From Clostridia bacterium (lineage in GTDB: Bacteria; Bacillota; Clostridia; Christensenellales; CAG-138): a stretch of DNA of 64,000 nt. The stretch lies in assembly GCA_017616435.1 (NCBI GenBank), contig JAFZYC010000045.1, positions 59,541 to 123,540 on the forward strand, read 5' to 3'. Shown here one piece after another: positions 1-25,469 of the stretch. The notes beneath the pieces were generated by a model. The model had not been told where the DNA came from. It searched no databases and saw nothing but the letters and a program-made list of their open reading frames with translations. The position numbers were made by a program, and so were the translations under genes. The stretch's first letter is position 1. Each line of letters starts with the position of its first letter.

Positions 1-3000
1 GAACGTTGCGTTCTTCGTTATCGTGACGTTATCCATCTCCCCTATCTCCGCCGTCGCGTAATCATAGTGGTACATATAGGGGGTGATGAAGAGCGCCTCG
101 TAAGCGAAGGGCTCGCGGGTAAGCGTATACCCGGCCTGGCGGCTGTCGCCGTTGAGCACCATGGGATAGCTCTCGCCCGCTCTGGGGGAAGCGGCGGTGA
201 GATCCGAATCCTTAATTGAACCGATATAGCCTTGATTCTGCAGCAGCTGGTAGCTGTTCGTGCCCGTGCCGACAAGATGAACGCCCTTGATCGAGCCGAT
301 AACGCCGCCCTTTTCGAGGTTGCGGACGTATATCTCCACGCGTTTGGTCTCCGTCGAGGCGTCGGCATTGTTCGTGTAGGTGCGGATGTACTCATAGCTC
401 GCGAGCGCGCCTGCGCCGGAATTGAGCAGCGCGTTGTAGTTGGCGGAGATAGTGAGATCCGCGGAATCGATCGCGCCGATATAGCCGTTCGTGTAAATGC
501 CGTAATAGCTGCCGGCGGATATCACGCCCGAAGCGGTGATGGATGTGATCTCGGAAGGCGCGCCGTAGGTCGTCATATTGTGCAGCTGTATGCTGCCGCC
601 CGCCTTATCGCCGTAGGTGTTGACGGTCTTCGCCGTGAACTGGGCGTCGATGTAGACTGCGGAATAGCCGGTCGCGCTGATCTCAACGCTGCCCTCTATG
701 GAACGGATAACGCCGCCCGCGGTATTGCGGAGCGCATAGTTGGAGGCGATCGACTTTGCGTTGTCGGGATGTTTATACGTCTTAATGACGGTATCCCCGC
801 ATATCACGCCTATAACGCCGCCGTTGTTGTATAGCGCGCAGCCGTGATCCGCGGAGGTCGATGTGTTCTCCGCGATTATCGTGCAGCTCTCGATCCTGCC
901 TATCGTCGGGCGGCAGGAATCGTCCTCCTTGTACTCGTCTGTGCGGGTATAGGGCGCGGAGGTAGTATCCGTGCGCCTCCATAGGGAGGTGTCGTACCAC
1001 CAGACGTTGGAGTTGAAAACGGTATAGCACTGCACATTGCCCTGAACATTGGTATCCGCCGTGCCCACGGTATTGACCTGAGCGGAATCGGGATGCGCTA
1101 TGAACGTGGAGCCGCGAAGCTCCGTTATGACGCCGCCGTTGTAGATCGCGTACTGGCCTACGTTGAACAGCGAATCCTTTATGAGCGCTATGCTGCCGAC
1201 CGCCGTCACCGACGCTCCGCCGGAGAATGTATAGGAATTGCCGCGGATATTGCGGTTGTTTATGCCGTAGGCGGTAGCAAACTCGCACCCGTCGACCGCG
1301 CCTATCGTTCCGCCGTAGTTCCATACGCCGTAGCCGCGGTTCGAGCGCAGCGTCGCGCCGTTCAGCTCCGGTATTTTGGAGCTGTGGTTGAGTATGACCG
1401 CGCCGTACGCGTTGATATCCTGCGTTATCACGAGCTCCGCGTCATAGACCCTGAGCGTGCCGCCCGCAGTATTGCGGATGACGCTCGTATAGTTGGTGAG
1501 CGAGGAGTTGTCCTCCGCTGCGTCGGTGATGATCACGCCTCCGCCCGCGGTATCCCTGACGGTCATATCGCCGCCGTTGTTCCAGAGCGCGGATGCTGCG
1601 CGGTAAGCCGTCGAGGCCTCCGCAGCACCGGTATAATACTCCCATGCGCCGCCGTTGAGATCGAGCGTGAGCGCGCCCTTGTTCATTATATGGCCTGCCG
1701 CCCTGTGCCCGTTGAGATCGACCGTGAGGCGGGCTCCTTCGAGCACGGAATAGCCCTGGAGCGGCGATTCCTCTTTGAAGCTGCCGCAGTCGGCGAGCAA
1801 AGTTATCACCGACTCGCCCGAGCCGGGAGCGGCGTTGAAGGCCTCTATGAGCGTGGGATAATACCGGGTCGCGCCGCCGTATGTGAGCGAGGCGACGGAG
1901 CCGGAATAGATGCCGTATATGTAGACCTCGCCTCCCGCGGACGCGCCTGCGGGGACGGTCCCTGTGAAGCAGAGCGAAGAGGCGTTGTTTTCGAGCTTCC
2001 ATGCTATGGAGTTATGGTTTGCCTCCGTAACGCCCATTGCGGAGTCCTGCGGCGCCGAGAGCGCGGAGCCGAACGCCGACGCCTGATCCCTGCGCACGAC
2101 ATAGAAGGTCTCCCCCTCTATCGCGACGGTCTCCGTGAGCTCGCTGCCGGTAAATGTCCTGTACAGCGCGGCGTTCGTCTCATCGAGCACGAACACGGGA
2201 ACGAACTGCGCCGCCGTGCCCGAAAGCGTGACCGTGCTGTTCGCGGTGACGCCCGTGACCGTGACGTTCCCGCCCGATACGGAGGCGGAGCCGTTCGTCG
2301 CGGAGGCGCCGGTGAAGCTCATGCCGCCCGCGCTGTATGTGGATGTGTTCCCCGCGATATAGTCGGTATAGACCGTCGTGCCGTTATAGACGTAATCGAC
2401 CTTGAACTTATACCATTTTTCCGCGTTGGTGCTGTAGAAATACGTGCCCGTGCCGGTCTGGGCGGTCTTGACGTAAGCGTCGTCCGTGCCGGCGTAGCCG
2501 TCGCCGTTCTTGAACTGCGCGGAGGTCACCGAGATCTGATGATAGCTGACGTCGGAGCCCGACTGGGAGGCCTGATAGAGCGTCGCCGTGCCGGTGCTGT
2601 TCATTACTATCTTTCCCGTTCCGCGGGAGCTCGTGATATCGGCTCCGCCCGCGGTGGTGATGAGCTTGCCCGTAACGTTCACTGTGCCGTTGACGTCGAT
2701 ATGGGTATCCTTAAGGTCAGCCGACGTGCGCGTATACGCCCTCGTCGGGGTATAGGGCAGGGGCATGAGGTCGTTGAGGTAGCCGAAGTATTTATCGTAG
2801 CCGTTGGTTGCCTTGCACCACTCGGTGCTGTCGTAGACGAAGAGGTTCACGCCGGAATTGATATTGACCGTCGCGCCTTCGTCAACGGTCACTCGCGCGC
2901 CGGGAAGCAGCTCCGTGGAGTTGGTTATCGTCGTCGTGCCGGAGTGGATATTGATATCTATATTGCTGTTGATGGGAAGTACGTACTTGGACGATGACAG

Positions 3001-4584
3001 GGTAACTATTAGATTGATCGAGATGGCGGAGAGCGATACCGAGCCGTTGATATCGATCGCGAGCCTGTCCTCATGCGGATCGTAGCGTTTCGTCGCCGAG
3101 GCGCCGGAGGACATGTTGAAAAGCGCGCCGGAGCTGCCTATGAACGCGATGTCGTTAACGTCGTTGATCTGCCCGTCGGCAAACAGCGTCGAATCGAGCT
3201 TTTCGGACGAGCCGTACTGGAAAGTGACGGGCGCCTCTATGTTCTGCACATAGTACTGGGACATCGGGAACACCTTCTGGCTGTTGTTGTTCATGCCGGA
3301 AAGCGCCGTGCCGCCGCGGAACTCCGTTATCTGGAAGCACTCCTTGACCGTGGAGCCGCTCTTTGCTGTGATGGCGCCGTCGCCCGTGACATAGCCGTAG
3401 GCGTAGAGGTACGCGCCGCTGTTCAGCGTTATCGAGCTGCCGCCGAGCATATCGATCCTGCCGTAGGGGCCGATGACGCCGCCGCCGACCGTCTGGCCGC
3501 CGCCGCTCATGGAGAATGCCTCCGCGGCGACGCTTATGCTGCCGCTGACGGTGATGGCCGCGCCGTTTGCGAGGGTGAGGCAGCGGAACTCGCGCGGGGT
3601 CGAATACGTGCGCTCCGAGCTCGTTTTGATCGACGTTACGAGCGTGTGCGCGGCGTTATAGGGTATGAGGAGCGTGACTCCGGAGGATATCGTGTAGCTG
3701 CCGGAAGCAAGCGTGCCGCTGTTGACGAGCACTATCTGCTTTGTCGAAGCGGACGCCGCCGCGGTGTTCGCCGCGTTGAGATCGGTATAATACGTGCTGC
3801 CGACCATGAACAGCGCGTTGCCCGCGGGTATGAACTTAGGCTGCAGGGTGATATTGCTGTCTATATTGAGAGAAGCGGGGTTGTCGGCGCTTATGCACCT
3901 GTTGCTGTTCGTCGTATCGATCCAGCCGTAGAAAGCGTAGCCGCTGTCGGGGAAAGCCTCGAGCTCGTAGGGGATCGTCGAGAGCTGAGTCCTTGTTACG
4001 GAGGAAGTGACCGCCGATCCGTCGAGCGTGAACGAGCCGTGCTCGCCGGGAACGAACGTGACCGTGGCGTTGACGGGGACGACCTCGAGCGTGATGTTCG
4101 TGAGCCTTACGCCCACGCCGGTATTATAGCCGTTCGCGTTGCCGGAGGCGGTTATCGCGACGGTCGTGGAGCCGCCGGCCGCGACCTCCACCGCCCTCGT
4201 GCCGCTCGTTCCGCTCATTGTTGTCCCGCCTATCTTGAGCGTGCCGTAGGTCGGATCGACGCTCCACGACATGGAGATGCTGACCTTCGCGTTGAAGTTG
4301 TTTGTGAGCGTGAGCGTTCCCGTCACGGCATTGTAATTATCGCAGGAGTCCTTTGAGGCCTTTACAGTGCCCCTGATCGCGCCGACGCCGGTCACGCTCC
4401 ACGTGCCCGCGTCGTAGCTCGCCGAAAGGCCTTCGACGCCGTGCCCCGAAAGCGCCGTCCTGACTGGCGCAGGCGGATCGACCCTGCCCGCCGCCTCCGC
4501 GAGGACGCTCTGCGGGATGAGGCCCATTATAAGTATCGCGCTGAGTATAAGTGCGAAAAATCTCTTAATTATTCTGTCTGTCAC
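1..4584 (-). CDS. Giant secreted repeat protein. Only the 5' part is in the window (at least 1528 codons; the C-terminus lies left of nt 1). It has a Sec signal peptide, a Listeria-Bacteroides-type repeat (GYxFxGW), then a long parallel-beta-helix-like region with PMP-like N-x-GG-x-I/L repeats
   Basis: It is absent from the ORF track because it has no stop inside the window. The minus frame opens at GTG 4584-4582 with GAGGT 7 nt upstream. I translated it by hand down to nt 1 without meeting a stop, and no other minus ORF is listed in that frame. N-terminus: VTDRIIKRFFALILSAILIMGLIPQSVLAEAAG. Later motifs: GYAFYGW, LWNNGGDM, IRNTAGGTL, IYNGGVI, LYNNGGVIG, LRNTAGGVI. Confidence 0.85.
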   Translation of the reverse strand, partial: MTDRIIKRFFALILSAILIMGLIPQSVLAEAAGRVDPPAPVRTALSGHGVEGLSASYDAGTWSVTGVGAIRGTVKASKDSCDNYNAVTGTLTLTNNFNAKVSISMSWSVDPTYGTLKIGGTTMSGTSGTRAVEVAAGGSTTVAITASGNANGYNTGVGVRLTNITLEVVPVNATVTFVPGEHGSFTLDGSAVTSSVTRTQLSTIPYELEAFPDSGYAFYGWIDTTNSNRCISADNPASLNIDSNITLQPKFIPAGNALFMVGSTYYTDLNAANTAAASASTKQIVLVNSGTLASGSYTISSGVTLLIPYNAAHTLVTSIKTSSERTYSTPREFRCLTLANGAAITVSGSISVAAEAFSMSGGGQTVGGGVIGPYGRIDMLGGSSITLNSGAYLYAYGYVTGDGAITAKSGSTVKECFQITEFRGGTALSGMNNNSQKVFPMSQYYVQNIEAPVTFQYGSSEKLDSTLFADGQINDVNDIAFIGSSGALFNMSSGASATKRYDPHEDRLAIDINGSVSLSAISINLIVTLSSSKYVLPINSNIDINIHSGTTTITNSTELLPGARVTVDEGATVNINSGVNLFVYDSTEWCKATNGYDKYFGYLNDLMPLPYTPTRAYTRTSADLKDTHIDVNGTVNVTGKLITTAGGADITSSRGTGKIVMNSTGTATLYQASQSGSDVSYHQISVTSAQFKNGDGYAGTDDAYVKTAQTGTGTYFYSTNAEKWYKFKVDYVYNGTTVYTDYIAGNTSTYSAGGMSFTGASATNGSASVSGGNVTVTGVTANSTVTLSGTAAQFVPVFVLDETNAALYRTFTGSELTETVAIEGETFYVVRRDQASAFGSALSAPQDSAMGVTEANHNSIAWKLENNASSLCFTGTVPAGASAGGEVYIYGIYSGSVASLTYGGATRYYPTLIEAFNAAPGSGESVITLLADCGSFKEESPLQGYSVLEGARLTVDLNGHRAAGHIMNKGALTLDLNGGAWEYYTGAAEASTAYRAASALWNNGGDMTVRDTAGGGVIITDAAEDNSSLTNYTSVIRNTAGGTLRVYDAELVITQDINAYGAVILNHSSKIPELNGATLRSNRGYGVWNYGGTIGAVDGCEFATAYGINNRNIRGNSYTFSGGASVTAVGSIALIKDSLFNVGQYAIYNGGVITELRGSTFIAHPDSAQVNTVGTADTNVQGNVQCYTVFNSNVWWYDTSLWRRTDTTSAPYTRTDEYKEDDSCRPTIGRIESCTIIAENTSTSADHGCALYNNGGVIGVICGDTVIKTYKHPDNAKSIASNYALRNTAGGVIRSIEGSVEISATGYSAVYIDAQFTAKTVNTYGDKAGGSIQLHNMTTYGAPSEITSITASGVISAGSYYGIYTNGYIGAIDSADLTISANYNALLNSGAGALASYEYIRTYTNNADASTETKRVEIYVRNLEKGGVIGSIKGVHLVGTGTNSYQLLQNQGYIGSIKDSDLTAASPRAGESYPMVLNGDSRQAGYTLTREPFAYEALFITPYMYHYDYATAEIGEMDNVTITKNATF

Positions 4585-18734: not shown

Positions 18735-20504
18735 TTATGACCCGCTTTGTGTATATCCGCATACTACACAGATGGAATCGCCGCCAATTGCTGTGTACCA
18801 TGTATGCTGCCCATATCCTCCGCCTACGCTACCGCACCCCTTATCACAAGTAATCCAATGCTGAGAGGAATTGTACCCATAATGATTAGTATATACACAA
18901 GACCATTGTCCTCCGCAGGCATAAACGGTTTTTAGGTAATACCCGTTGATACTTGAAATGTTGACTGTCCTTTTTGTAGTTTTATCTATATTGCTCTTTC
19001 TTGTCGACTCATAAATTGTTACGATAGCATTCGAACGAGAATAATACAGTATTGCATGATTGGTTTGCCCGGGAACATCATATGCTACCAAATAATCCAT
19101 CTCTTCCATATTAGCAAAACTAGCATCATTCACAACGGTACTGTCGTTCATGTTGCCATAAATAAAGTATCCCACGTCTTCCTTTAGTTTTTTTGTCTTT
19201 TTATGTGTTCCAAGCAGATAGGCATAGCTGACAAATCCGGAACAATCCATGCCAGTTGTTTGTAGATTTTTGGTATAGCTAATGTTGCCTGCTGTTAAAC
19301 CGTTATCCAAATCATCATCAAAATCGTCGAGATTCGCAAAATACTCGTTTCCCCAACAATACGGTATCCCAATGAAGTTTCTTGGCGGAGTAACACCTTG
19401 AATAAAATGAGGAAGAATTACACCCGGGGGAGTAGACATATTATTACTTGTTAATGTCCAAAGGTGGTTCTTAGCATCATTAGCGCGCTGCTTGACTTGA
19501 TTTCTGGTTAGGCTAGTCTGCGTATAAACGGTTCTGGTGTTTAAGGCTCGCATACTAGAGGGCATGATTTTATATGCGAAATCTTCAAGGTCTTGAATAT
19601 GCGAATCATACTGTTTCTGAAGATTTGGCCTTGTAATGTAGACACCTTCTTCACGACACAGCATTGTATAAATTGTATCGTTGTCGCTTATGAATGCTGC
19701 AGTCTGCGGAATTGAAAAAGCATTTCTGTAATCTATTACGGTACAACCTATCAGGTCGCCTTCAAAGTCGTACTTTCTGATTGTGTATTCCGTTTCGATA
19801 ATTGGAACAAATGGGACAAACTCATACACCCCAATTAGTATACAATCCTCTGATTCTGCCAGATACTGTGCGAGAGTATTATCGCCAGTATTAACAGAAA
19901 CGGTGTTGCCTAAAACAGAGAATACTTTTTTAGGGGAAAATGAATCTGTCACTTCTGCGTTATAGGAAAGCTCCCATTCTTTTAGACTGTTAAGAGAATA
20001 GCATCTGCAATCAATAGTAAGCAACTGAAGTATCCCGTTCTGATTTCTCAAACTAAATATATCCGAAAACTCCAGTCCTTCAGGAATGCTTATCGTGCCG
20101 CAGAGTTCTCCGGAATCCGAAATTGCATAGATTGTGGTTTCGTCGTAATCGATCAAATAATACAATTCTTCATAGCGGCACATAAACCTTGGCCTCGTAC
20201 ATTCGCTTAATGGTATGTAATGCAAGCTTTTTCCATTATAAACTACAATTCTGCATTTTACTGAATCTAATACTGCAACCTTGTTTCCATCAACAATAAA
20301 TGCTTCAGGGCCAGAACGCCAATCGTATTCCGTCTTATACCCTATTTCGTTTTCACTTTCACCAGCGGGTAAATACAGAATGATTTCAGCATCATTGAGG
20401 GCGTCTCCTGTATAACCAGATTCACACTCGGGACGCGCTGCGGCGCCAACGAATACCGAAAGCGCCATGATCGTGATAATGATTGCCGACATTATTTTCT
20501 TCAT
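18735..20504 (-). CDS. Secreted NlpC/P60-family cysteine peptidase with an N-terminal propeller-like domain and a Cys-rich C-terminal tail
   Basis: 589 aa with an AAGGAGG RBS and a signal peptide MKKIMSAIIITIMALSVFVGAAA. Catalytic motif GMDCSGFVSYAY, then NHAILYY (His). The C-terminal roughly 70 aa carry 8 Cys. The gene is markedly AT-richer than its flanks. Confidence 0.8.
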   Translation of the reverse strand: MKKIMSAIIITIMALSVFVGAAARPECESGYTGDALNDAEIILYLPAGESENEIGYKTEYDWRSGPEAFIVDGNKVAVLDSVKCRIVVYNGKSLHYIPLSECTRPRFMCRYEELYYLIDYDETTIYAISDSGELCGTISIPEGLEFSDIFSLRNQNGILQLLTIDCRCYSLNSLKEWELSYNAEVTDSFSPKKVFSVLGNTVSVNTGDNTLAQYLAESEDCILIGVYEFVPFVPIIETEYTIRKYDFEGDLIGCTVIDYRNAFSIPQTAAFISDNDTIYTMLCREEGVYITRPNLQKQYDSHIQDLEDFAYKIMPSSMRALNTRTVYTQTSLTRNQVKQRANDAKNHLWTLTSNNMSTPPGVILPHFIQGVTPPRNFIGIPYCWGNEYFANLDDFDDDLDNGLTAGNISYTKNLQTTGMDCSGFVSYAYLLGTHKKTKKLKEDVGYFIYGNMNDSTVVNDASFANMEEMDYLVAYDVPGQTNHAILYYSRSNAIVTIYESTRKSNIDKTTKRTVNISSINGYYLKTVYACGGQWSCVYTNHYGYNSSQHWITCDKGCGSVGGGYGQHTWYTAIGGDSICVVCGYTQSGS

Positions 20505-20593: not shown

Positions 20594-21343
20594 TCACAGT
20601 TCGAGATCCTCGGCGAGACGCGGAGGCACTCCGCGGGGGCCGCGCACGGCGAATATGCCGTAATCCTTCAGCCGCGCGAAAGTGAAATCTCCCGGGTCGT
20701 ACCGCCTCAGGAGCTTTATCCGCATAAGCGCGGTGATGGTGAGCTCCCCGCTTTTGTAATCATACGGGATGTCCGTCTCGGTCACGATGCATTTGAAGAG
20801 TATCGCGGAGACCGGCGCCGCGGCGTAGACGAACACCGTGTCGCCCGTCCTTATCCCCGCGCCCTGTTTCCATTCGATCTCGTCCCTTTCGTTGAAAGCC
20901 CGCACTATATCGTAATACTTCGGGTTGGCGGGCACTATCCAATCCTTCGGGGGGCGCAGCCGCCTTTTTTTCGCCGCGGAGGCGGTCGCCTCGTAGCTCA
21001 TATCGATCAGCGAGCATATCTCGCCGAAGCCGACTGTGCCGTCGAGCAGCACCGAGACCCAGTTCCCGCTTGAAAAATGCCAGCCGCGAAAGAAGCCCTC
21101 CCTCTGCCTCAGCATGCTGCACAGGAGCGGATCGCCGGGCTTCACGTTGAGTATGTCGACGCGGCCCTCTCCCTTTAGGCCGAGGGCGCTGCGGGGCACG
21201 TCCATGACTATGCAGAACCATTTGCGGTCGTCCGAATGGCGGAACACGGCGTAGTCGGGAAAGCGCAGCCAAAGGCGCTCCGGCCCGCAGCCGTAGCGCT
21301 CCGTGATCCAGCGTGTCACGTCCTCTCTGAACGAGCTGCCCAT
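20594..21343 (-). CDS. MmcQ/YjbR-family domain fused to a PUA-like (EVE/ASCH-like) C-terminal domain
   Basis: 249 aa. The N-terminal half (PDYAVFRHSDDRKWFCIVMDV...GNWVSVLLDG) fits YjbR. The C-terminal half starts WIVPANPKYYDI and contains GDTVFVY. A paralogue lies at 56367-57113. Confidence 0.65.
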   Translation of the reverse strand: MGSSFREDVTRWITERYGCGPERLWLRFPDYAVFRHSDDRKWFCIVMDVPRSALGLKGEGRVDILNVKPGDPLLCSMLRQREGFFRGWHFSSGNWVSVLLDGTVGFGEICSLIDMSYEATASAAKKRRLRPPKDWIVPANPKYYDIVRAFNERDEIEWKQGAGIRTGDTVFVYAAAPVSAILFKCIVTETDIPYDYKSGELTITALMRIKLLRRYDPGDFTFARLKDYGIFAVRGPRGVPPRLAEDLEL

Positions 21344-22374
21344 GCTTGACCTCCGTTCCGGCGCCCTGCCCTCGCGCAGGCGGGATATTCGTACAGCTTT
21401 CCGTGCACGAAATAGTTATAGGATCTGCAGCCTCCGGCGCAGAAACGGCCCTTCGGGCAGTCGGCGCAGGCGCCGGTGAGCATTTCGGGCGTGAACCGCC
21501 TGTTATAGGCGAAGGCTTCGGGATCCTCCCATATCTCCTTGAGGCTCCTCTCGCGCAGGTTCCCCTCGTTGAAGGCCTCGTCGTACATGGATTCGCAGCC
21601 GCGGACGTTGCCGACGCTGTCTATGCCTATCGACGTGAGCCCGGCTCTGCAGCCGGTGAACGGCGCCCCGCCGGATCTTCTGCCGCGGAGGCGCTCCTCG
21701 TCCTCCGTCCAATAGCCGATATTGTCGGCAGCTCCCAGAGCGAAAGGCGCTTCGTCGATATGGCGCATCACAAAATCGATCACCGCTTTCGTATCGATAC
21801 TGTGGTCGATGCCCGAGACCGCGGCGTTGCCCATGGGCGAGCACGCCTGCAGCTGCCACGCGCCGATGGGCTTGTCCCTCAATATGCCGTACATCTCCTC
21901 CAGCATCGGGGCGTTCTCGCTGTTGAGGGTGCTTATCACGGAAACGGGTATCCCGCCCGCGCGGAGCGCGTCTATCGCATCCATCGCGCGGCGGAAGCTG
22001 CCCTCCTGGCGGTACTTGTCGTGCACGCGCTCCGGCCCGTCGACCGAGACCGCGACGGATTCGATGTTCGCCCCTCGCAGCCTTTCGATAGTGTCTTTTT
22101 TGAATATGAAGCCGTTCGTTATTATCGCGACCGCGACGCCGCGATCCGTAAGCCGGCGCGCGATCACGTCCCAGTCGGGGCGCATGAAGACCTCGCCGCC
22201 TATCATCGATACGCGTCTGCAGCCCATTTGCGCGAGCTGATCCGCGACTAAGAGGCATTCCTCCGTCGTCAGCTCGTTCTCCCTCGCCTTTCCCGCGCGG
22301 GAGCCGCAGTATCTGCAGGAGAAGCAGCAGGCGAGCGTGATCTCCCAAACGCAGGAGCGGAGCCTGAAGCTCAT
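21316..22374 (-). CDS. Radical SAM enzyme with a C-terminal SPASM-type auxiliary-cluster domain (putative peptide/protein maturase)
   Basis: 352 aa. CX3CX2C at the N-terminus (ACCFSCRYC), GGE motif (IGGEVFMRPD), and a C-terminal Cys pattern GCRAG..GNVRGCES...CADCPKGRFCAGGCRS. ATGA overlap with the upstream repeat-protein gene. Confidence 0.8.
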   Translation of the reverse strand: MSFRLRSCVWEITLACCFSCRYCGSRAGKARENELTTEECLLVADQLAQMGCRRVSMIGGEVFMRPDWDVIARRLTDRGVAVAIITNGFIFKKDTIERLRGANIESVAVSVDGPERVHDKYRQEGSFRRAMDAIDALRAGGIPVSVISTLNSENAPMLEEMYGILRDKPIGAWQLQACSPMGNAAVSGIDHSIDTKAVIDFVMRHIDEAPFALGAADNIGYWTEDEERLRGRRSGGAPFTGCRAGLTSIGIDSVGNVRGCESMYDEAFNEGNLRERSLKEIWEDPEAFAYNRRFTPEMLTGACADCPKGRFCAGGCRSYNYFVHGKLYEYPACARAGRRNGGQAWAARSERT

Positions 22375-22931
22375 ACCTTCGTTTCCTTTCCGAACAGCCT
22401 CGCGAAGAAGCAGCGGCCCTTCTTGGGCTCGCGCTCGGGAGGCTCGGGCTCGTTCTTTTCTTCCTTTTGGGGTTCCTTGCGGCGCGCCGCGTCGGGAGCG
22501 GGCATCACCGCGCCGAGAAGCGCGGGACCTTCGTGCTCCTCGGTTACGGGACGGTCCCCGCCCATCATCTCCGGTCCGCCGTAGACGTCGAGGATCTCCG
22601 CCTCCTGCTTGAAGGCGTCAGGGCAGGCGTAGACGGCCTTGAACTCCGCCTCTCCCCCGCCGGTCATTTTGGGGCCGTCGTAAACGCGGCTCATCTGTGC
22701 CTCGCGCCGGCGCCGCGCCATCATATCCGGCCCGCCGTATACGAGCATCATCGGCGGCTCCTTGGGGCGTGGCGCCTCCCTGTAATTATCGGGATAGCCC
22801 GCGCCTTCATCAGGCGCGTTCTCCTCGTCTTTCTCCCTGTCGGTATCCTCGTCCTTATCGCCGGGCTTGGTCACCCAGCCGGGCGCAGCGTACAGCGCCA
22901 CGAACCTTGCTCTTTCCTTTTTCATTTTCAT
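22371..22931 (-). CDS. Charged, Pro-rich protein with five (V/L)-Y-x-x-P repeats; candidate substrate of the adjacent radical SAM enzyme
   Basis: 186 aa. The repeats are FVALYAAPGW, MLVYGGPDMM, SRVYDGPKMT, KAVYACPDAF and LDVYGGPEMM. GAAAGGAA RBS lies 13 nt after the stop of the upstream gene. No TM segment or signal peptide. Confidence 0.65.
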   Translation of the reverse strand: MKMKKERARFVALYAAPGWVTKPGDKDEDTDREKDEENAPDEGAGYPDNYREAPRPKEPPMMLVYGGPDMMARRRREAQMSRVYDGPKMTGGGEAEFKAVYACPDAFKQEAEILDVYGGPEMMGGDRPVTEEHEGPALLGAVMPAPDAARRKEPQKEEKNEPEPPEREPKKGRCFFARLFGKETKV

Positions 22932-22944
22932 ACCCGTTCCTTTC

Positions 22945-25386
22945 TTATATGAACAGATTGACGTTCGATTCCTCCGCGTCGCCGAGGTAGGTGCCGACTC
23001 CGCCGATCTCGACGCCGTCGATCAGCTCCTCCGGCTTGATGCCCATGACGTCCATGCTCATGGAGCAGGCAACGAGCTTCACGCCGTTGTCGAGGGCCTT
23101 CTTTATAAGCTCCTCCAGCGAATCGATGTTCTTGTCCTTCATTATCCTCTTCATCATCGCGGTACCCATGCCGCCCATGTTCATCTTGGAGAGCTTTAGC
23201 TTCTTCGAGCCGCGGGGCAGCATGGCGCCGAACATCTTTTCTATCGCGGTCTTTTTGACCTTCTGCTTTTCGGGCTTCCTCAGCGCGTTGAGGCCCCAGA
23301 ACGTGAAGAACATCGTGACAGGCCTGCCCATGGCGAGCGCGCCGTTCGCGATTATGAACGAGGCGAGCACCTTGTCAAGATCGCCGTCGAACACGATTAT
23401 CGTCTTGCCCTCGGGAGCTTCCTTCACTGCGAAGCCCTCCTTCTTCGGCGCGTTCTCAACGCCCTTTTTCACCACGGCCGCGTAGTCGCTCCCGCGCTTT
23501 TCGTTCGAAACGAGGGTGTTGCCCGTGCGCCTGCACCAGGACGCGATATCCTTTGCAAAGCCGGGATCGGAGGCCAATACCTCCAGCGTGTCGCCCTCCT
23601 TCATCTCGCCGAGCTTCTTGTAGACCTCCATGATGGGGCCGGGGCACTGCATACCGCAGCAGTCAAGACGCACTGTTTCCATATCGTTCACGCTCCTTGA
23701 TGATGTTTCCTCCTTCGCGGGGGCGGGCGCCTCCGCGCTTTCATGCACCGCTCTGTAGAATCTCGCGCCGCCGGGATAGATCGCGACGTCCTCAAAGCCC
23801 GACTGCGTGAGTATCCTTGCCGCGTTGTAAGCCCTGACGCCTATCGCGCAGAAAACTATCGTCCTCTTTTTGGGATCGAGCTCGCCCATGCGCGATCTGA
23901 TCTCGCCCAAGGGTATGTTCACCGCGCCGGGCACGGCGTAGGCGGTCACCTCCGCCTCCTCGCGCACGTCGAGCAGCTGCGCCGCCGGGTTATTATCCGG
24001 CTCGTCCCATTCCGCCTGGCGGACGAGGCCCTTCAATACGTTCTCCGCCACGAAGCCCGCCATGTTGACTGGATCCTTTGCGGAGGAGAACGGCGGAGCG
24101 TAAGCCAGCTCCAGCTCCTTGAGCGCCGTGACGCCCGCCCCGAGGCGCTGCGCTGCGGCTATAACGTCTATGCGCTTATCCACGCCCTCGCTTCCGACCG
24201 CCTGCGCGCCGAGTATGCGGCTCCCGTCGGCGGTGAACGTCAGCTTCATGGTCATCTGCGCCGCGCCGGGATAGTACCCCGCATGGTGGTTCTGAACGAC
24301 CGTGACCGTTTGGTAATCGCGCCCCTTCACCATGCCGCGGCTCTTCAGCGTCTTCTCGTTCGCGCCGGTGAACGCCGCCGTCAAGCCGAACAGCTTCACT
24401 ATCGAGGTCCCCTGCGTGCCGCGGTAGACCTCGTCACCGCCCGCGATATTGTCCGCCGCGATGCGGCCCTGCTTGTTCGCCGGGCCGGCCAGGGCTATCA
24501 TAGCCTTCCCGCCCGAGACGAAGTCCGTGACCTCTGCCGCGTCGCCCACGGCGTAGATCGAGGGATCCGCCGTGCGCATGCGGTCGTTGGTGACGATGCC
24601 GCCCTTCGCGTTGAGCTCAAGCCCGCAGTCCCCCGCGAGCGCGCCGTTCGGCCTTACGCCTATCGCGAGGACTACGAAATCGGTGTCGATCCTCCTGCCG
24701 CTCCTGAGCCTGACCGCTATATCGTGCCCGCTGTCGTCGAATGAATCGACGCCGTCGCCGAGTATGAGCTCGACGCCGTTTTCCGTGAGTTCCCTATGCA
24801 CGAGCTTCGCAAGCTCCGTGTCGAGCGGAGCGAGCACCTGATCCATGGCCTCGACGAGCGTCACCCTGAGCCCCGCATGGCGGAGGTTCTCCGCGATCTC
24901 GACGCCTATGAACCCGCCGCCGATCACCGCCGCGCTTTCGGAAGCGCCGACGGCGTCTCGCAGGTCGTCCGCGTCGGGCACTGTCCACAGCGTCCTTACC
25001 CGCGGGCTGTCTATGCCGGGTATCCTCGGCCTTAACGGGCTCGAGCCCGTTGCTATGACGAGGGTATCGTAGCTTTCGTCGTATTCCGTGCCGTTCGCGA
25101 TATCCTTAACGCGCACCTTCTTGCCCGCGCGGTCGATCGAGACCGCTTCGGAGAGCGTCCTTACGTCGATATTGAACTTCTTTTTCATCGCCTCCGGCGT
25201 CTGCAGCAGCAGCGCGCGCCGCGATTTTATAACGTCGCCCACGTGATAGGGCAGCCCGCAGTTCGCGTAGGAGATGTATTCCCCCCGCTCCAGCATAACT
25301 ATCTCGGCCGTCTCGTCGAGCCTGCGGAGCCTCGCCGCGCAGGAGGCTCCCCCCGCGACGCCGCCGATTATGACAACTTTACTCAT
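22945..25386 (-). CDS. CoA-disulfide/persulfide reductase-like flavoprotein fused to rhodanese, TusA-like and DsrE/F-like domains
   Basis: 813 aa. FAD motif VVIIGGVAGGAS and redox Cys SYANCGLPYH. Rhodanese loop FCAIGVRA. TusA motif CCGMQCPGP. The C-terminal DsrE-like segment begins KTIIVFDGDLDKVLASFIIANGA. Confidence 0.8.
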   Translation of the reverse strand: MSKVVIIGGVAGGASCAARLRRLDETAEIVMLERGEYISYANCGLPYHVGDVIKSRRALLLQTPEAMKKKFNIDVRTLSEAVSIDRAGKKVRVKDIANGTEYDESYDTLVIATGSSPLRPRIPGIDSPRVRTLWTVPDADDLRDAVGASESAAVIGGGFIGVEIAENLRHAGLRVTLVEAMDQVLAPLDTELAKLVHRELTENGVELILGDGVDSFDDSGHDIAVRLRSGRRIDTDFVVLAIGVRPNGALAGDCGLELNAKGGIVTNDRMRTADPSIYAVGDAAEVTDFVSGGKAMIALAGPANKQGRIAADNIAGGDEVYRGTQGTSIVKLFGLTAAFTGANEKTLKSRGMVKGRDYQTVTVVQNHHAGYYPGAAQMTMKLTFTADGSRILGAQAVGSEGVDKRIDVIAAAQRLGAGVTALKELELAYAPPFSSAKDPVNMAGFVAENVLKGLVRQAEWDEPDNNPAAQLLDVREEAEVTAYAVPGAVNIPLGEIRSRMGELDPKKRTIVFCAIGVRAYNAARILTQSGFEDVAIYPGGARFYRAVHESAEAPAPAKEETSSRSVNDMETVRLDCCGMQCPGPIMEVYKKLGEMKEGDTLEVLASDPGFAKDIASWCRRTGNTLVSNEKRGSDYAAVVKKGVENAPKKEGFAVKEAPEGKTIIVFDGDLDKVLASFIIANGALAMGRPVTMFFTFWGLNALRKPEKQKVKKTAIEKMFGAMLPRGSKKLKLSKMNMGGMGTAMMKRIMKDKNIDSLEELIKKALDNGVKLVACSMSMDVMGIKPEELIDGVEIGGVGTYLGDAEESNVNLFI

Positions 25387-25440: not shown

Positions 25441-25469
25441 AATATACCATATCTTTTCCTCTTCTTCAA
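25441..25469 (-). promoter_or_regulatory. Candidate promoter of the CoADR / repeat protein / rSAM / YjbR operon
   Basis: On the minus strand: TTGAAG (25469-25464), 17 nt spacer, TATATT (25446-25441). It lies about 55 nt upstream of ATG 25386. Confidence 0.4.

Follow-up and report, generated by a model that had tools for sequence, protein, structure and literature searches.

Radical S-adenosylmethionine (SAM)/SPASM enzymes and substrates with tyrosine motifs have led to unexpected chemistry before, such as backbone splicing, mycofactocin and PQQ. The tyramine spliceases (PlpX/PlpA, PcpX, RhaX, RcsX/RasX; Morinaka 2018, Scott 2022) belong to this superfamily and lack an N-terminal recognition element (RRE) for peptides that are made on the ribosome and modified after translation (RiPPs), and the same holds for the enzyme described here. 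A review (PMC11002830) assigns PlpX to the InterPro subclass IPR026482, which occurs together with precursors that have Nif11 or nitrile-hydratase leaders. Where spliceases form binary systems, the enzyme is bound and activated by a leader helix (PMC11414181). According to a review, Scott et al. (2022, Chem) ranked the neighbours of radical SAM enzymes by how often they contain Y-G and validated 27 pairs of enzyme and substrate. Here we analyse two genes on the minus strand of a 64-kb stretch of Clostridia DNA (the whole stretch is called the window in the following), one for a radical SAM/SPASM enzyme and one, directly upstream, for an acidic protein with repeated tyrosine motifs, hereafter called the partner. 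Such pairs occur in gut and rumen Clostridia and, judging from their sequences, probably install a protein modification. On balance we slightly favour a self-contained two-gene cassette for protein modification, which would be related to the spliceases, directed at tyrosine and cytoplasmic.

The partner gene (22371..22931, 186-aa open reading frame (ORF)) and the enzyme gene (21316..22374, 352-aa ORF) overlap in an ATGA at 22371..22374, read from ...AAG GTA TGA at the partner stop and ATG AGC at the enzyme start. All features given below by position in the window lie on the same strand. The sequence thereby confirms the pair and its overlap as proposed in the initial annotation, and the overlap is consistent with translational coupling. 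Purine-rich stretches resembling ribosome binding sites precede both start codons. Partner and enzyme are identical to entries from a metagenome-assembled genome (MAG) of rumen Clostridia, where they are just named ‘hypothetical protein’ and ‘radical SAM protein’.

To evaluate conservation of the pair, a single genome of each species was scanned for matches to two exact peptide patterns. This yielded 339 loci, 80 of which were examined. Stop-to-stop ORFs on either strand within 4 kb of the enzyme were searched for at least two matches to the tyrosine motif. At 74 of the 80 loci, from different Clostridia species, the sole ORF with at least two motifs adjoins the enzyme upstream on the same strand. 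The remaining six are truncated where the contig ends or have just one motif copy. The gap between both genes at the related loci is mostly -14 to +27 nt and extends up to +112 nt. Motif density amounts to 18.9 per 1000 aa in the partners vs 0.88 in the other ORFs of the same loci. Hence repeat proteins do co-occur with orthologues of the enzyme, a check which the initial annotation had suggested.

All-against-all clustering of the neighbouring ORFs from the 80 loci and the window gave no third family present in more than six loci. Rarer recurrent neighbours (at most six loci) are unrelated, such as KsgA, MatE and a reverse-transcriptase fragment. Across the same set no protease, exporter, RRE or leader family is conserved beside the pair, and neither heme-pathway nor sulfatase genes recur next to the enzyme. 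The conserved unit is two genes. Homologues of the enzyme come from Clostridia, Lachnospiraceae, Oscillospiraceae and Christensenella-like MAGs, and the pair is abundant, with protein clusters at 90% identity numbering in the hundreds in metagenomes from gut and rumen. The pair is kept even where the enzymes share only 44-45% identity with that of the window: P0129 has a 75-aa protein upstream with YPDS, MVYFGP and a zinc ribbon, and P0137 a 107-aa protein downstream, which is rich in Cys at the N-terminus, contains SYPHN and AVYAGPP and has a hydrophobic C-terminal tail. In a Lachnoclostridium MAG (L031) two partner genes are arranged in tandem (2402..3004 and 3005..3961 of that locus, 5 and 8 motif copies) with one enzyme gene downstream.

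To describe the motif, 273 sites were collected from the 74 partners with a pattern that fixed Tyr and Pro and limited position -1 to V, I, L, M or A. The consensus is Phi-x-x-V-Y-A-G-P-x-Phi-Phi (Phi, hydrophobic), with Val at -1 in 81% of the sites, Ala at +1 in 83% (226/273) and Gly at +2 in 74% (202/273). Gly directly after Tyr is found at 11 sites family-wide (4%); in the window protein two of the five sites are V-Y-G. Hydrophobic residues flank the core, whereby M, I, T or F occupies -4 and M, F and Y interchange at +5/+6. A partner carries one to nine copies and measures 90-395 aa. The spacers are acidic and of low complexity, and both spacer and protein length vary freely among partners; in some cases (e.g. 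at L002, L006 and L014) the spacers form long perfect tandem runs of P-E-E or E-E-P-E. Motif variants are linked to clades: V-Y-A-P/A-P is found in an Oscillospiraceae-type group without zinc ribbons, V-Y-M-G-P in another group, and an extra N-terminal L-Y-A-A-P copy marks the enzyme clade of the window. Such tracking of enzyme clades by sequence variants fits co-evolution as well as shared ancestry.

Outside the repeats, a Y-P-[EDAN]-[NRS]-[YFA]-x-E-E element occurs exactly once in 63 of the 74 partners. Ahead of it, Lachnospiraceae partners often have an N-terminal M-K-N-F-F-K-N-L-F-K-K stretch. This element, Y-P-D-N-Y in the window, may serve as enzyme docking site or be modified itself. 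A C-terminal zinc ribbon (PF13240 or PF12773) is present in 55 partners and a terminal G-F/L-F/L-x-K/R-L-F stretch in 14, while none of the 74 has a signal peptide or a membrane segment. Searched against Pfam and NCBIfam, the orthologous partners match zinc-ribbon families only. PF27116 is listed for some of them in precomputed annotations and is absent from the Pfam version searched. A profile built from 22 partners retrieved 161 proteins, all of which are named ‘zinc ribbon domain-containing’ or ‘hypothetical’.

The partner in the window has five motif copies. Copy 1, F-V-A-L-Y-A-A-P-G-W (Y14, 22881..22895), is divergent and of the type typical of its enzyme clade. It is followed by M-M-L-V-Y-G-G-P-D-M-M (Y65, 22728..22742), M-S-R-V-Y-D-G-P-K-M (Y84, 22671..22685), F-K-A-V-Y-A-C-P-D-A-F (Y101, 22620..22634) and I-L-D-V-Y-G-G-P-E-M-M (Y117, 22572..22586). 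The ‘five-fold V-Y-G-G-P’ of the initial annotation thus holds as five Phi-Y-x-x-P sites, whereas the exact V-Y-G-G-P is realized in only two of them. With a relaxed form of the motif the six frames of the window together give 13 matches. Five of these fall into the 186-aa ORF, which is far above chance. A word-indexed homologue search with this partner returned only itself and one orthologue (L001, 53% identical). Since the third copy (V-Y-D-G-P) is missing there, repeat number differs among close relatives.

Further elements accompany the repeats. The single-copy Y-P-D-N-Y (residues 46-50, 22782..22796) is unchanged in the orthologue of the window protein, and a hydrophobic element P-A-L-L-G-A-V-M-P-A-P (residues 136-146, 22494..22526) is common to partners of the same enzyme clade. 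No zinc ribbon is present; in its place the protein ends with the basic, amphipathic-looking stretch K-K-G-R-C-F-F-A-R-L-F-G-K (residues 170-182, 22386..22424), which is likewise invariant in the orthologue. Here F175, F176, L179 and F180 are spaced i, i+1, i+4, i+5, which we take to resemble the membrane-targeting sequence of MinD. From its sequence the stretch could act as membrane-targeting helix or as a leader-type activating helix; the AlphaFold2 model shows no confident helix at residues 170-182. As a whole the partner is predicted to be unstructured (mean predicted local distance difference test (pLDDT) of 43, based on an alignment of three sequences). It contains no hydrophobic stretch, the maximal Kyte-Doolittle average over 19 residues being 0.19, and has no Pfam or NCBIfam match at E up to 10. 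The description as disordered-looking and lacking an export signal is borne out by these data.

The enzyme is a member of the radical SAM/SPASM superfamily. Pfam assigns Radical_SAM (PF04055) to residues 11-162 (3.7e-27) and SPASM (PF13186) to residues 242-307 (1.5e-08). The motif for the radical SAM [4Fe-4S] cluster, C16-x3-C20-x2-C23 (22306..22329), is invariant in homologue alignments. In the SPASM region (21376..21651) seven cysteines are conserved (C242, C260, C303, C306, C312, C316 and C333), by their number enough for two auxiliary clusters. All ten are invariant across 18 homologues. With Radical_SAM beginning as early as residue 11, the N-terminus offers no space for an RRE. The placement of CX3CX2C near residue 15 and the lack of an obvious RRE were both predicted correctly.

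In total 76 NCBIfam models matched the enzyme, the best 25 of which are considered here, and it reaches no curated cut-off. The top model is TIGR04103 (nif11-class maturase 3; 245.2 bits, cut-off 725), which we take to be equivalent to IPR026482. It is followed by TIGR03913 (GDL motif peptide-associated radical SAM/SPASM maturase, rad_SAM_trio; 201 bits, cut-off 592) and TIGR04133 (141 bits, cut-off 425). Heme b synthase AhbD (138 bits, cut-off 500) leads among the models of named, characterised enzymes, ahead of WgkB (134 bits, cut-off 650), NirJ (132 bits, cut-off 515), MftC (129 bits, cut-off 265), PqqE (87 bits, cut-off 381), DynA (82 bits) and anSME (65 bits, cut-off 349). AhbD, NirJ and anSME thus stay below both peptide-maturase models at the top, in line with the peptide-type enzyme of the initial annotation, and an identity as one of these three was rejected based on the scores below cut-off and the gene context.

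Relatives of the enzyme are numerous, with 1468 homologue clusters at E<=1e-20, the top 120 of which are 65-82% identical. When 1.8 billion 50%-identity representatives were searched exhaustively with HMMER, 449 proteins were returned at E<=1e-30. Two full-length matches show 57-58% identity and the others at most 45%, next to a few fragments with 61-77%. We found no close solved structure. The AlphaFold2 model (pLDDT 73, predicted template modelling score 0.75) retrieves the peptide maturases SkfB, PqqE and SuiB as top Foldseek matches. Some homologues deviate in their domain architecture. In P0013 and P0015 (70-73% identical) the radical SAM/SPASM core is extended at its C-terminus by a Nudix hydrolase domain (PF00293). 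The 731-aa P0126 unites a tandem of complete radical SAM/SPASM modules, two in number, in a single chain; its second module is 34% identical to the window enzyme.

More distant relatives are found beside other kinds of genes. P0144 (40% identity, 264 bits to the window enzyme) matches TIGR03913 best (314 bits) and then TIGR04103 (299 bits), missing both cut-offs. Downstream of it (L090) two peptides of 58-62 aa with a shared leader are encoded at 3653..3841 and 3904..4080 of the locus, which read ...DQVLAGLKVKELEQRIAPVKCEKNPDAPECQVVAMYGVDPDPDPVVRYGIGF and ...QVVTEYGVVTDYGIPAPRYGVGF. A leader followed by MYG/RYG or EYG/DYG/RYG sites matches the published layout of spliceotide precursors, and by sequence L090 is a probable unannotated spliceotide locus of metagenomic origin. 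The likewise 40% identical P0138 (L088) has an upstream 60-aa peptide (2316..2498) ending ...D-I-Y-S-Y-P-D-E-P-L-E. Its Y-P-D-E resembles the Y-P-E/D-N/R of the partners; the latter element may be modified itself rather than used for docking. P0141 and P0146 (41-44% identical; L087 and L091) belong to a recurrent cluster in which a sulfatase-family gene comes after a pair of neighbouring radical SAM/SPASM genes. As there is no Tyr-repeat neighbour, these two loci represent a different system in the same sequence neighbourhood.

A conserved enzyme, a fast-evolving neighbour with Tyr motifs, coupling of the genes and relatives among peptide maturases together give the signature of an enzyme and its substrate, and with good confidence we regard the partner as the putative substrate. 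All copies contain the Tyr, and Tyr motifs are also what the nearest relatives act on, which makes a Tyr-directed radical reaction the best guess; that the modification is centred on tyrosine appears likely. The nearest recognisable relatives are the tyramine spliceases and for this reason a splicease-type rearrangement is judged the likeliest chemistry, an assignment that we make tentatively. The enzyme would dock on the disordered partner, perhaps via the Y-P-D-N-Y element or the terminal amphipathic stretch. By analogy with the leader helix of binary spliceases, the terminal amphipathic-looking stretch or the Y-P-E-N element of the partners are candidates for the leader role. The 5’-deoxyadenosyl radical would then be used to modify each Phi-x-x-V-Y-A-G-P-x-Phi-Phi site at or beside the tyrosine. 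In the backbone rearrangement that we envisage, a tyramine equivalent would be lost and an alpha-keto-beta-valine ketoamide left behind, at X-Y-A/G-G-P rather than at the canonical X-Y-G. In favour of this, two of the five window sites are V-Y-G as such. Like the partner motif, the natural splice tag of PlpA (...P-L-Y-G-L-P-I) carries a Pro at +3.

With protease, exporter and signal peptide all absent, the product is probably an intracellular modified protein and not a secreted peptide. It would remain in the cytoplasm, anchored by the zinc ribbon or the amphipathic stretch. Only enzyme and partner recur and the partners measure 90-395 aa, and an assignment as classical RiPP cluster was rejected on these grounds. 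Of the ‘multi-core RiPP-like’ system proposed initially the repeat logic stands, while conserved leader, processing and export functions were not found in the loci analysed. The size of the cytoplasmic partners, most of them with a zinc ribbon, makes protein modification likelier than a secreted peptide natural product.

Several observations weigh against a splicease-related cassette. The X-Y-G splice motif is not conserved, as Gly follows Tyr in 4% and Ala in 83% of the sites. Moreover Val is strongly fixed at -1, which is unexpected since spliceases accept many X residues. The TIGR04103 score of the enzyme is far under the cut-off (245 vs 725). Only four of the 96 nearest representatives match a curated model at E<=1e-90 (two TIGR04103, one TIGR03913, one TIGR04334), all far below the cut-offs, so that transfer of function at family level is weak. 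Finally, other close relatives are located in unlike contexts, such as the two radical SAM genes with a sulfatase.

The best surviving alternative, which we nevertheless hold to be doubtful, keeps the same pair and replaces the rearrangement by a crosslink within the motif, i.e. a C-C cyclophane or C-O ether joining the Tyr ring to a side chain close by, e.g. Val(-1), Pro(+3) or Met/Phe(+5/+6). This would be a modified form of the triceptide idea in the initial annotation. Crosslinks are indeed made by many SPASM enzymes whose substrates repeat a short aromatic motif (streptide, darobactin, triceptides). Scores for WgkB (134 bits), DynA (82 bits) and MftC (129 bits) are in a moderate range, and the conserved Val, Pro and flanking hydrophobic residues could be reactants instead of merely serving recognition. 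However, in the canonical cyclophane of three residues the third must supply a C-beta, and Gly is found there in 74% of the 273 sites. The initial analogy to triceptide or cyclophane maturases is therefore not supported, and no model described as such is among the best 25 of the 76 NCBIfam matches. Splicease-type models lead the scores by more than 100 bits. That the flanking hydrophobic residues are interchangeable (M/I/T/F and M/F/Y) suits recognition better than a fixed crosslink partner.

Less probable still is a mass-silent or small change made by the same pair, such as epimerisation of Val or Tyr, beta-hydroxylation or desaturation, perhaps for protease resistance. Radical SAM peptide epimerases and hydroxylases exist, and a disordered cytoplasmic protein modified at many sites could plausibly gain stability. 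Epimerisation is also counted among the radical SAM reactions of RiPP pathways (PMC9389541). On the other hand evidence from homology points to none of these enzyme groups and no epimerase model is among the top NCBIfam matches listed. PlpD/PoyD-type epimerases are presented as an enzyme separate from PlpX (PMC11002830), which argues in the same direction.

We deem it very unlikely that the repeat protein serves, like PqqA or MftA, as precursor with several cores for a small diffusible product, for instance a Val-Tyr-derived redox cofactor or a short ketoamide protease inhibitor freed by housekeeping peptidases encoded elsewhere. V-Y does recall the C-terminal V-Y of the mycofactocin precursor (PMC8326336). 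The matches to MftC (129 bits) and PqqE (87 bits) are real though below threshold, and a copy number of one to nine that shifts among close relatives is expected if only core dosage matters. But mycofactocin and PQQ genes lie in operons larger than two genes, and the genes conserved next to the pair include neither a peptidase nor a carrier, dehydrogenase or exporter. MftC chemistry requires a C-terminal Tyr, whereas the partner sites are all internal, and the conserved zinc ribbon and Y-P-E-N element suggest that the whole protein matters. A neighbour that is not a substrate at all and serves as scaffold, regulator or chaperone of an enzyme acting on a small molecule or another protein is just as improbable: the heme-pathway models AhbD and NirJ do score 130-140 bits and the Nudix domain in two homologues hints at nucleotide or small-molecule chemistry, but the genes are tightly coupled, the nearest relatives adjoin short Tyr-motif peptides, the structural neighbours are peptide maturases, and partners of 65-82% identical enzymes keep little beyond the short Tyr motif, the signature of a recognition or modification site and not of a folded accessory protein.

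The surroundings of the pair in the window are less conserved. Upstream lies a gene for an 813-aa protein (22945..25386) in which a pyridine-nucleotide disulfide oxidoreductase, CoA-disulfide-reductase-like, is fused to rhodanese, TusA and DsrE-like domains. Its 3’ end is located 13 nt ahead of the partner gene, with which it is probably co-transcribed. This neighbour is shared by the closest relative only (L001) and hence stands outside the conserved cassette. Downstream, a gene for a 249-aa protein with a YjbR domain at the N-terminus (20594..21343) starts 28 nt within the 3’ end of the enzyme gene and is preceded by a GGAGG site. The C-terminal half of the protein (128 residues) has no Pfam match, and the gene is not conserved next to the enzyme at other loci. 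No terminator-like site was seen between the four genes; promoter-like sites are found at 25469..25441 and 23378..23351. Further along, G+C drops to 46% between 18001 and 20000 compared with ~60% in the flanks, and this region may have been acquired horizontally. An ORF at 18735..20504 on the minus strand encodes 589 aa with an N-terminal hydrophobic segment, a Cys-rich tail and an NlpC/P60 Pfam match below cut-off.

Within the literature collection searched, the motif strings VYAGP, VYGGP, YAGPE, YAGPD and VYAAP returned no relevant paper and the TIGR accessions nothing of use, and no curated family for enzyme or partner was found in Pfam or NCBIfam. The enzyme-partner family may be among the splicease types of Scott et al. 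(2022); as far as the review describes it, a ranking based on Y-G would tend to miss a Y-A-G-P family. An abundant and tightly conserved pair has seemingly received generic names only (‘radical SAM protein’, ‘zinc ribbon domain-containing protein’, ‘hypothetical’). We consider it possible, if somewhat unlikely, that up to nine internal V-Y-A-G-P sites are rewritten in a native disordered cytoplasmic protein by a previously undescribed system, be it the first case of X-Y-A splicing or another reaction new to the clade. If true, splicease-like chemistry would shift from natural products into the ordinary protein biology of dominant anaerobes, and in the case of X-Y-A splicing electrophilic alpha-keto-beta-valine residues would be present in a bacterial protein for physiological use. 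The short, leaderless-looking site of 11 residues could moreover become a tag for enzymatic protein engineering.

Compared with other described families, resemblance is partial. TIGR03913 is the second-best model for the window enzyme and the top model for P0144; in contrast to that family the partners have no match to a GDL-peptide family, and to our knowledge no chemistry has been characterised for it. MftC also is a SPASM enzyme acting on a Val-Tyr pair (C-terminal ...G-V-Y of MftA), with moderate homology (129 bits). It differs by a multi-gene mft operon with an RRE protein (MftB) and a C-terminal Tyr, as opposed to two genes and internal repeated sites. Triceptide maturases (XyeB, GrrM, FxsB) are likewise radical SAM/SPASM enzymes beside repeated short aromatic motifs, but the third residue of the partner motif is mostly Gly and thus without C-beta. 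In Bacteroidales, TIGR04133 with the putative lipoprotein TIGR04134 also combines an uncharacterised radical SAM enzyme with a protein-sized neighbour, the latter presumably carrying Y-G-x-P-like repeats. Membership was rejected, as the enzyme scores 141 bits against a cut-off of 425 and the partners show neither a TIGR04134 match (E<=1 to 10) nor a lipoprotein signal.

Similarities are most extensive with the tyramine spliceases. Their model TIGR04103 is the top-scoring curated model for the window enzyme, albeit at a third of the cut-off, and the 40%-identical relative P0144 adjoins peptides with X-Y-G sites. One or several short Tyr-centred motifs after a hydrophobic residue are found in splicease substrates and likewise in the putative substrate here. 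Binary systems without Y protein are known, and some substrates have been described as proteins. There are differences, too: the sites read V-Y-A-G-P and Val is strongly conserved at X, the partners have no match to Nif11 or nitrile-hydratase (NHLP) leaders and no third gene is conserved, while type I splicease systems have a PqqD-like Y protein. Moreover the partners are acidic proteins of 90-395 aa with zinc ribbons, that of the window being predicted as disordered, and the hosts are gut and rumen Clostridia. Taken together, the pair joins a radical SAM/SPASM enzyme to a putative substrate with repeated motifs, as known systems do, and has its place near the spliceases.

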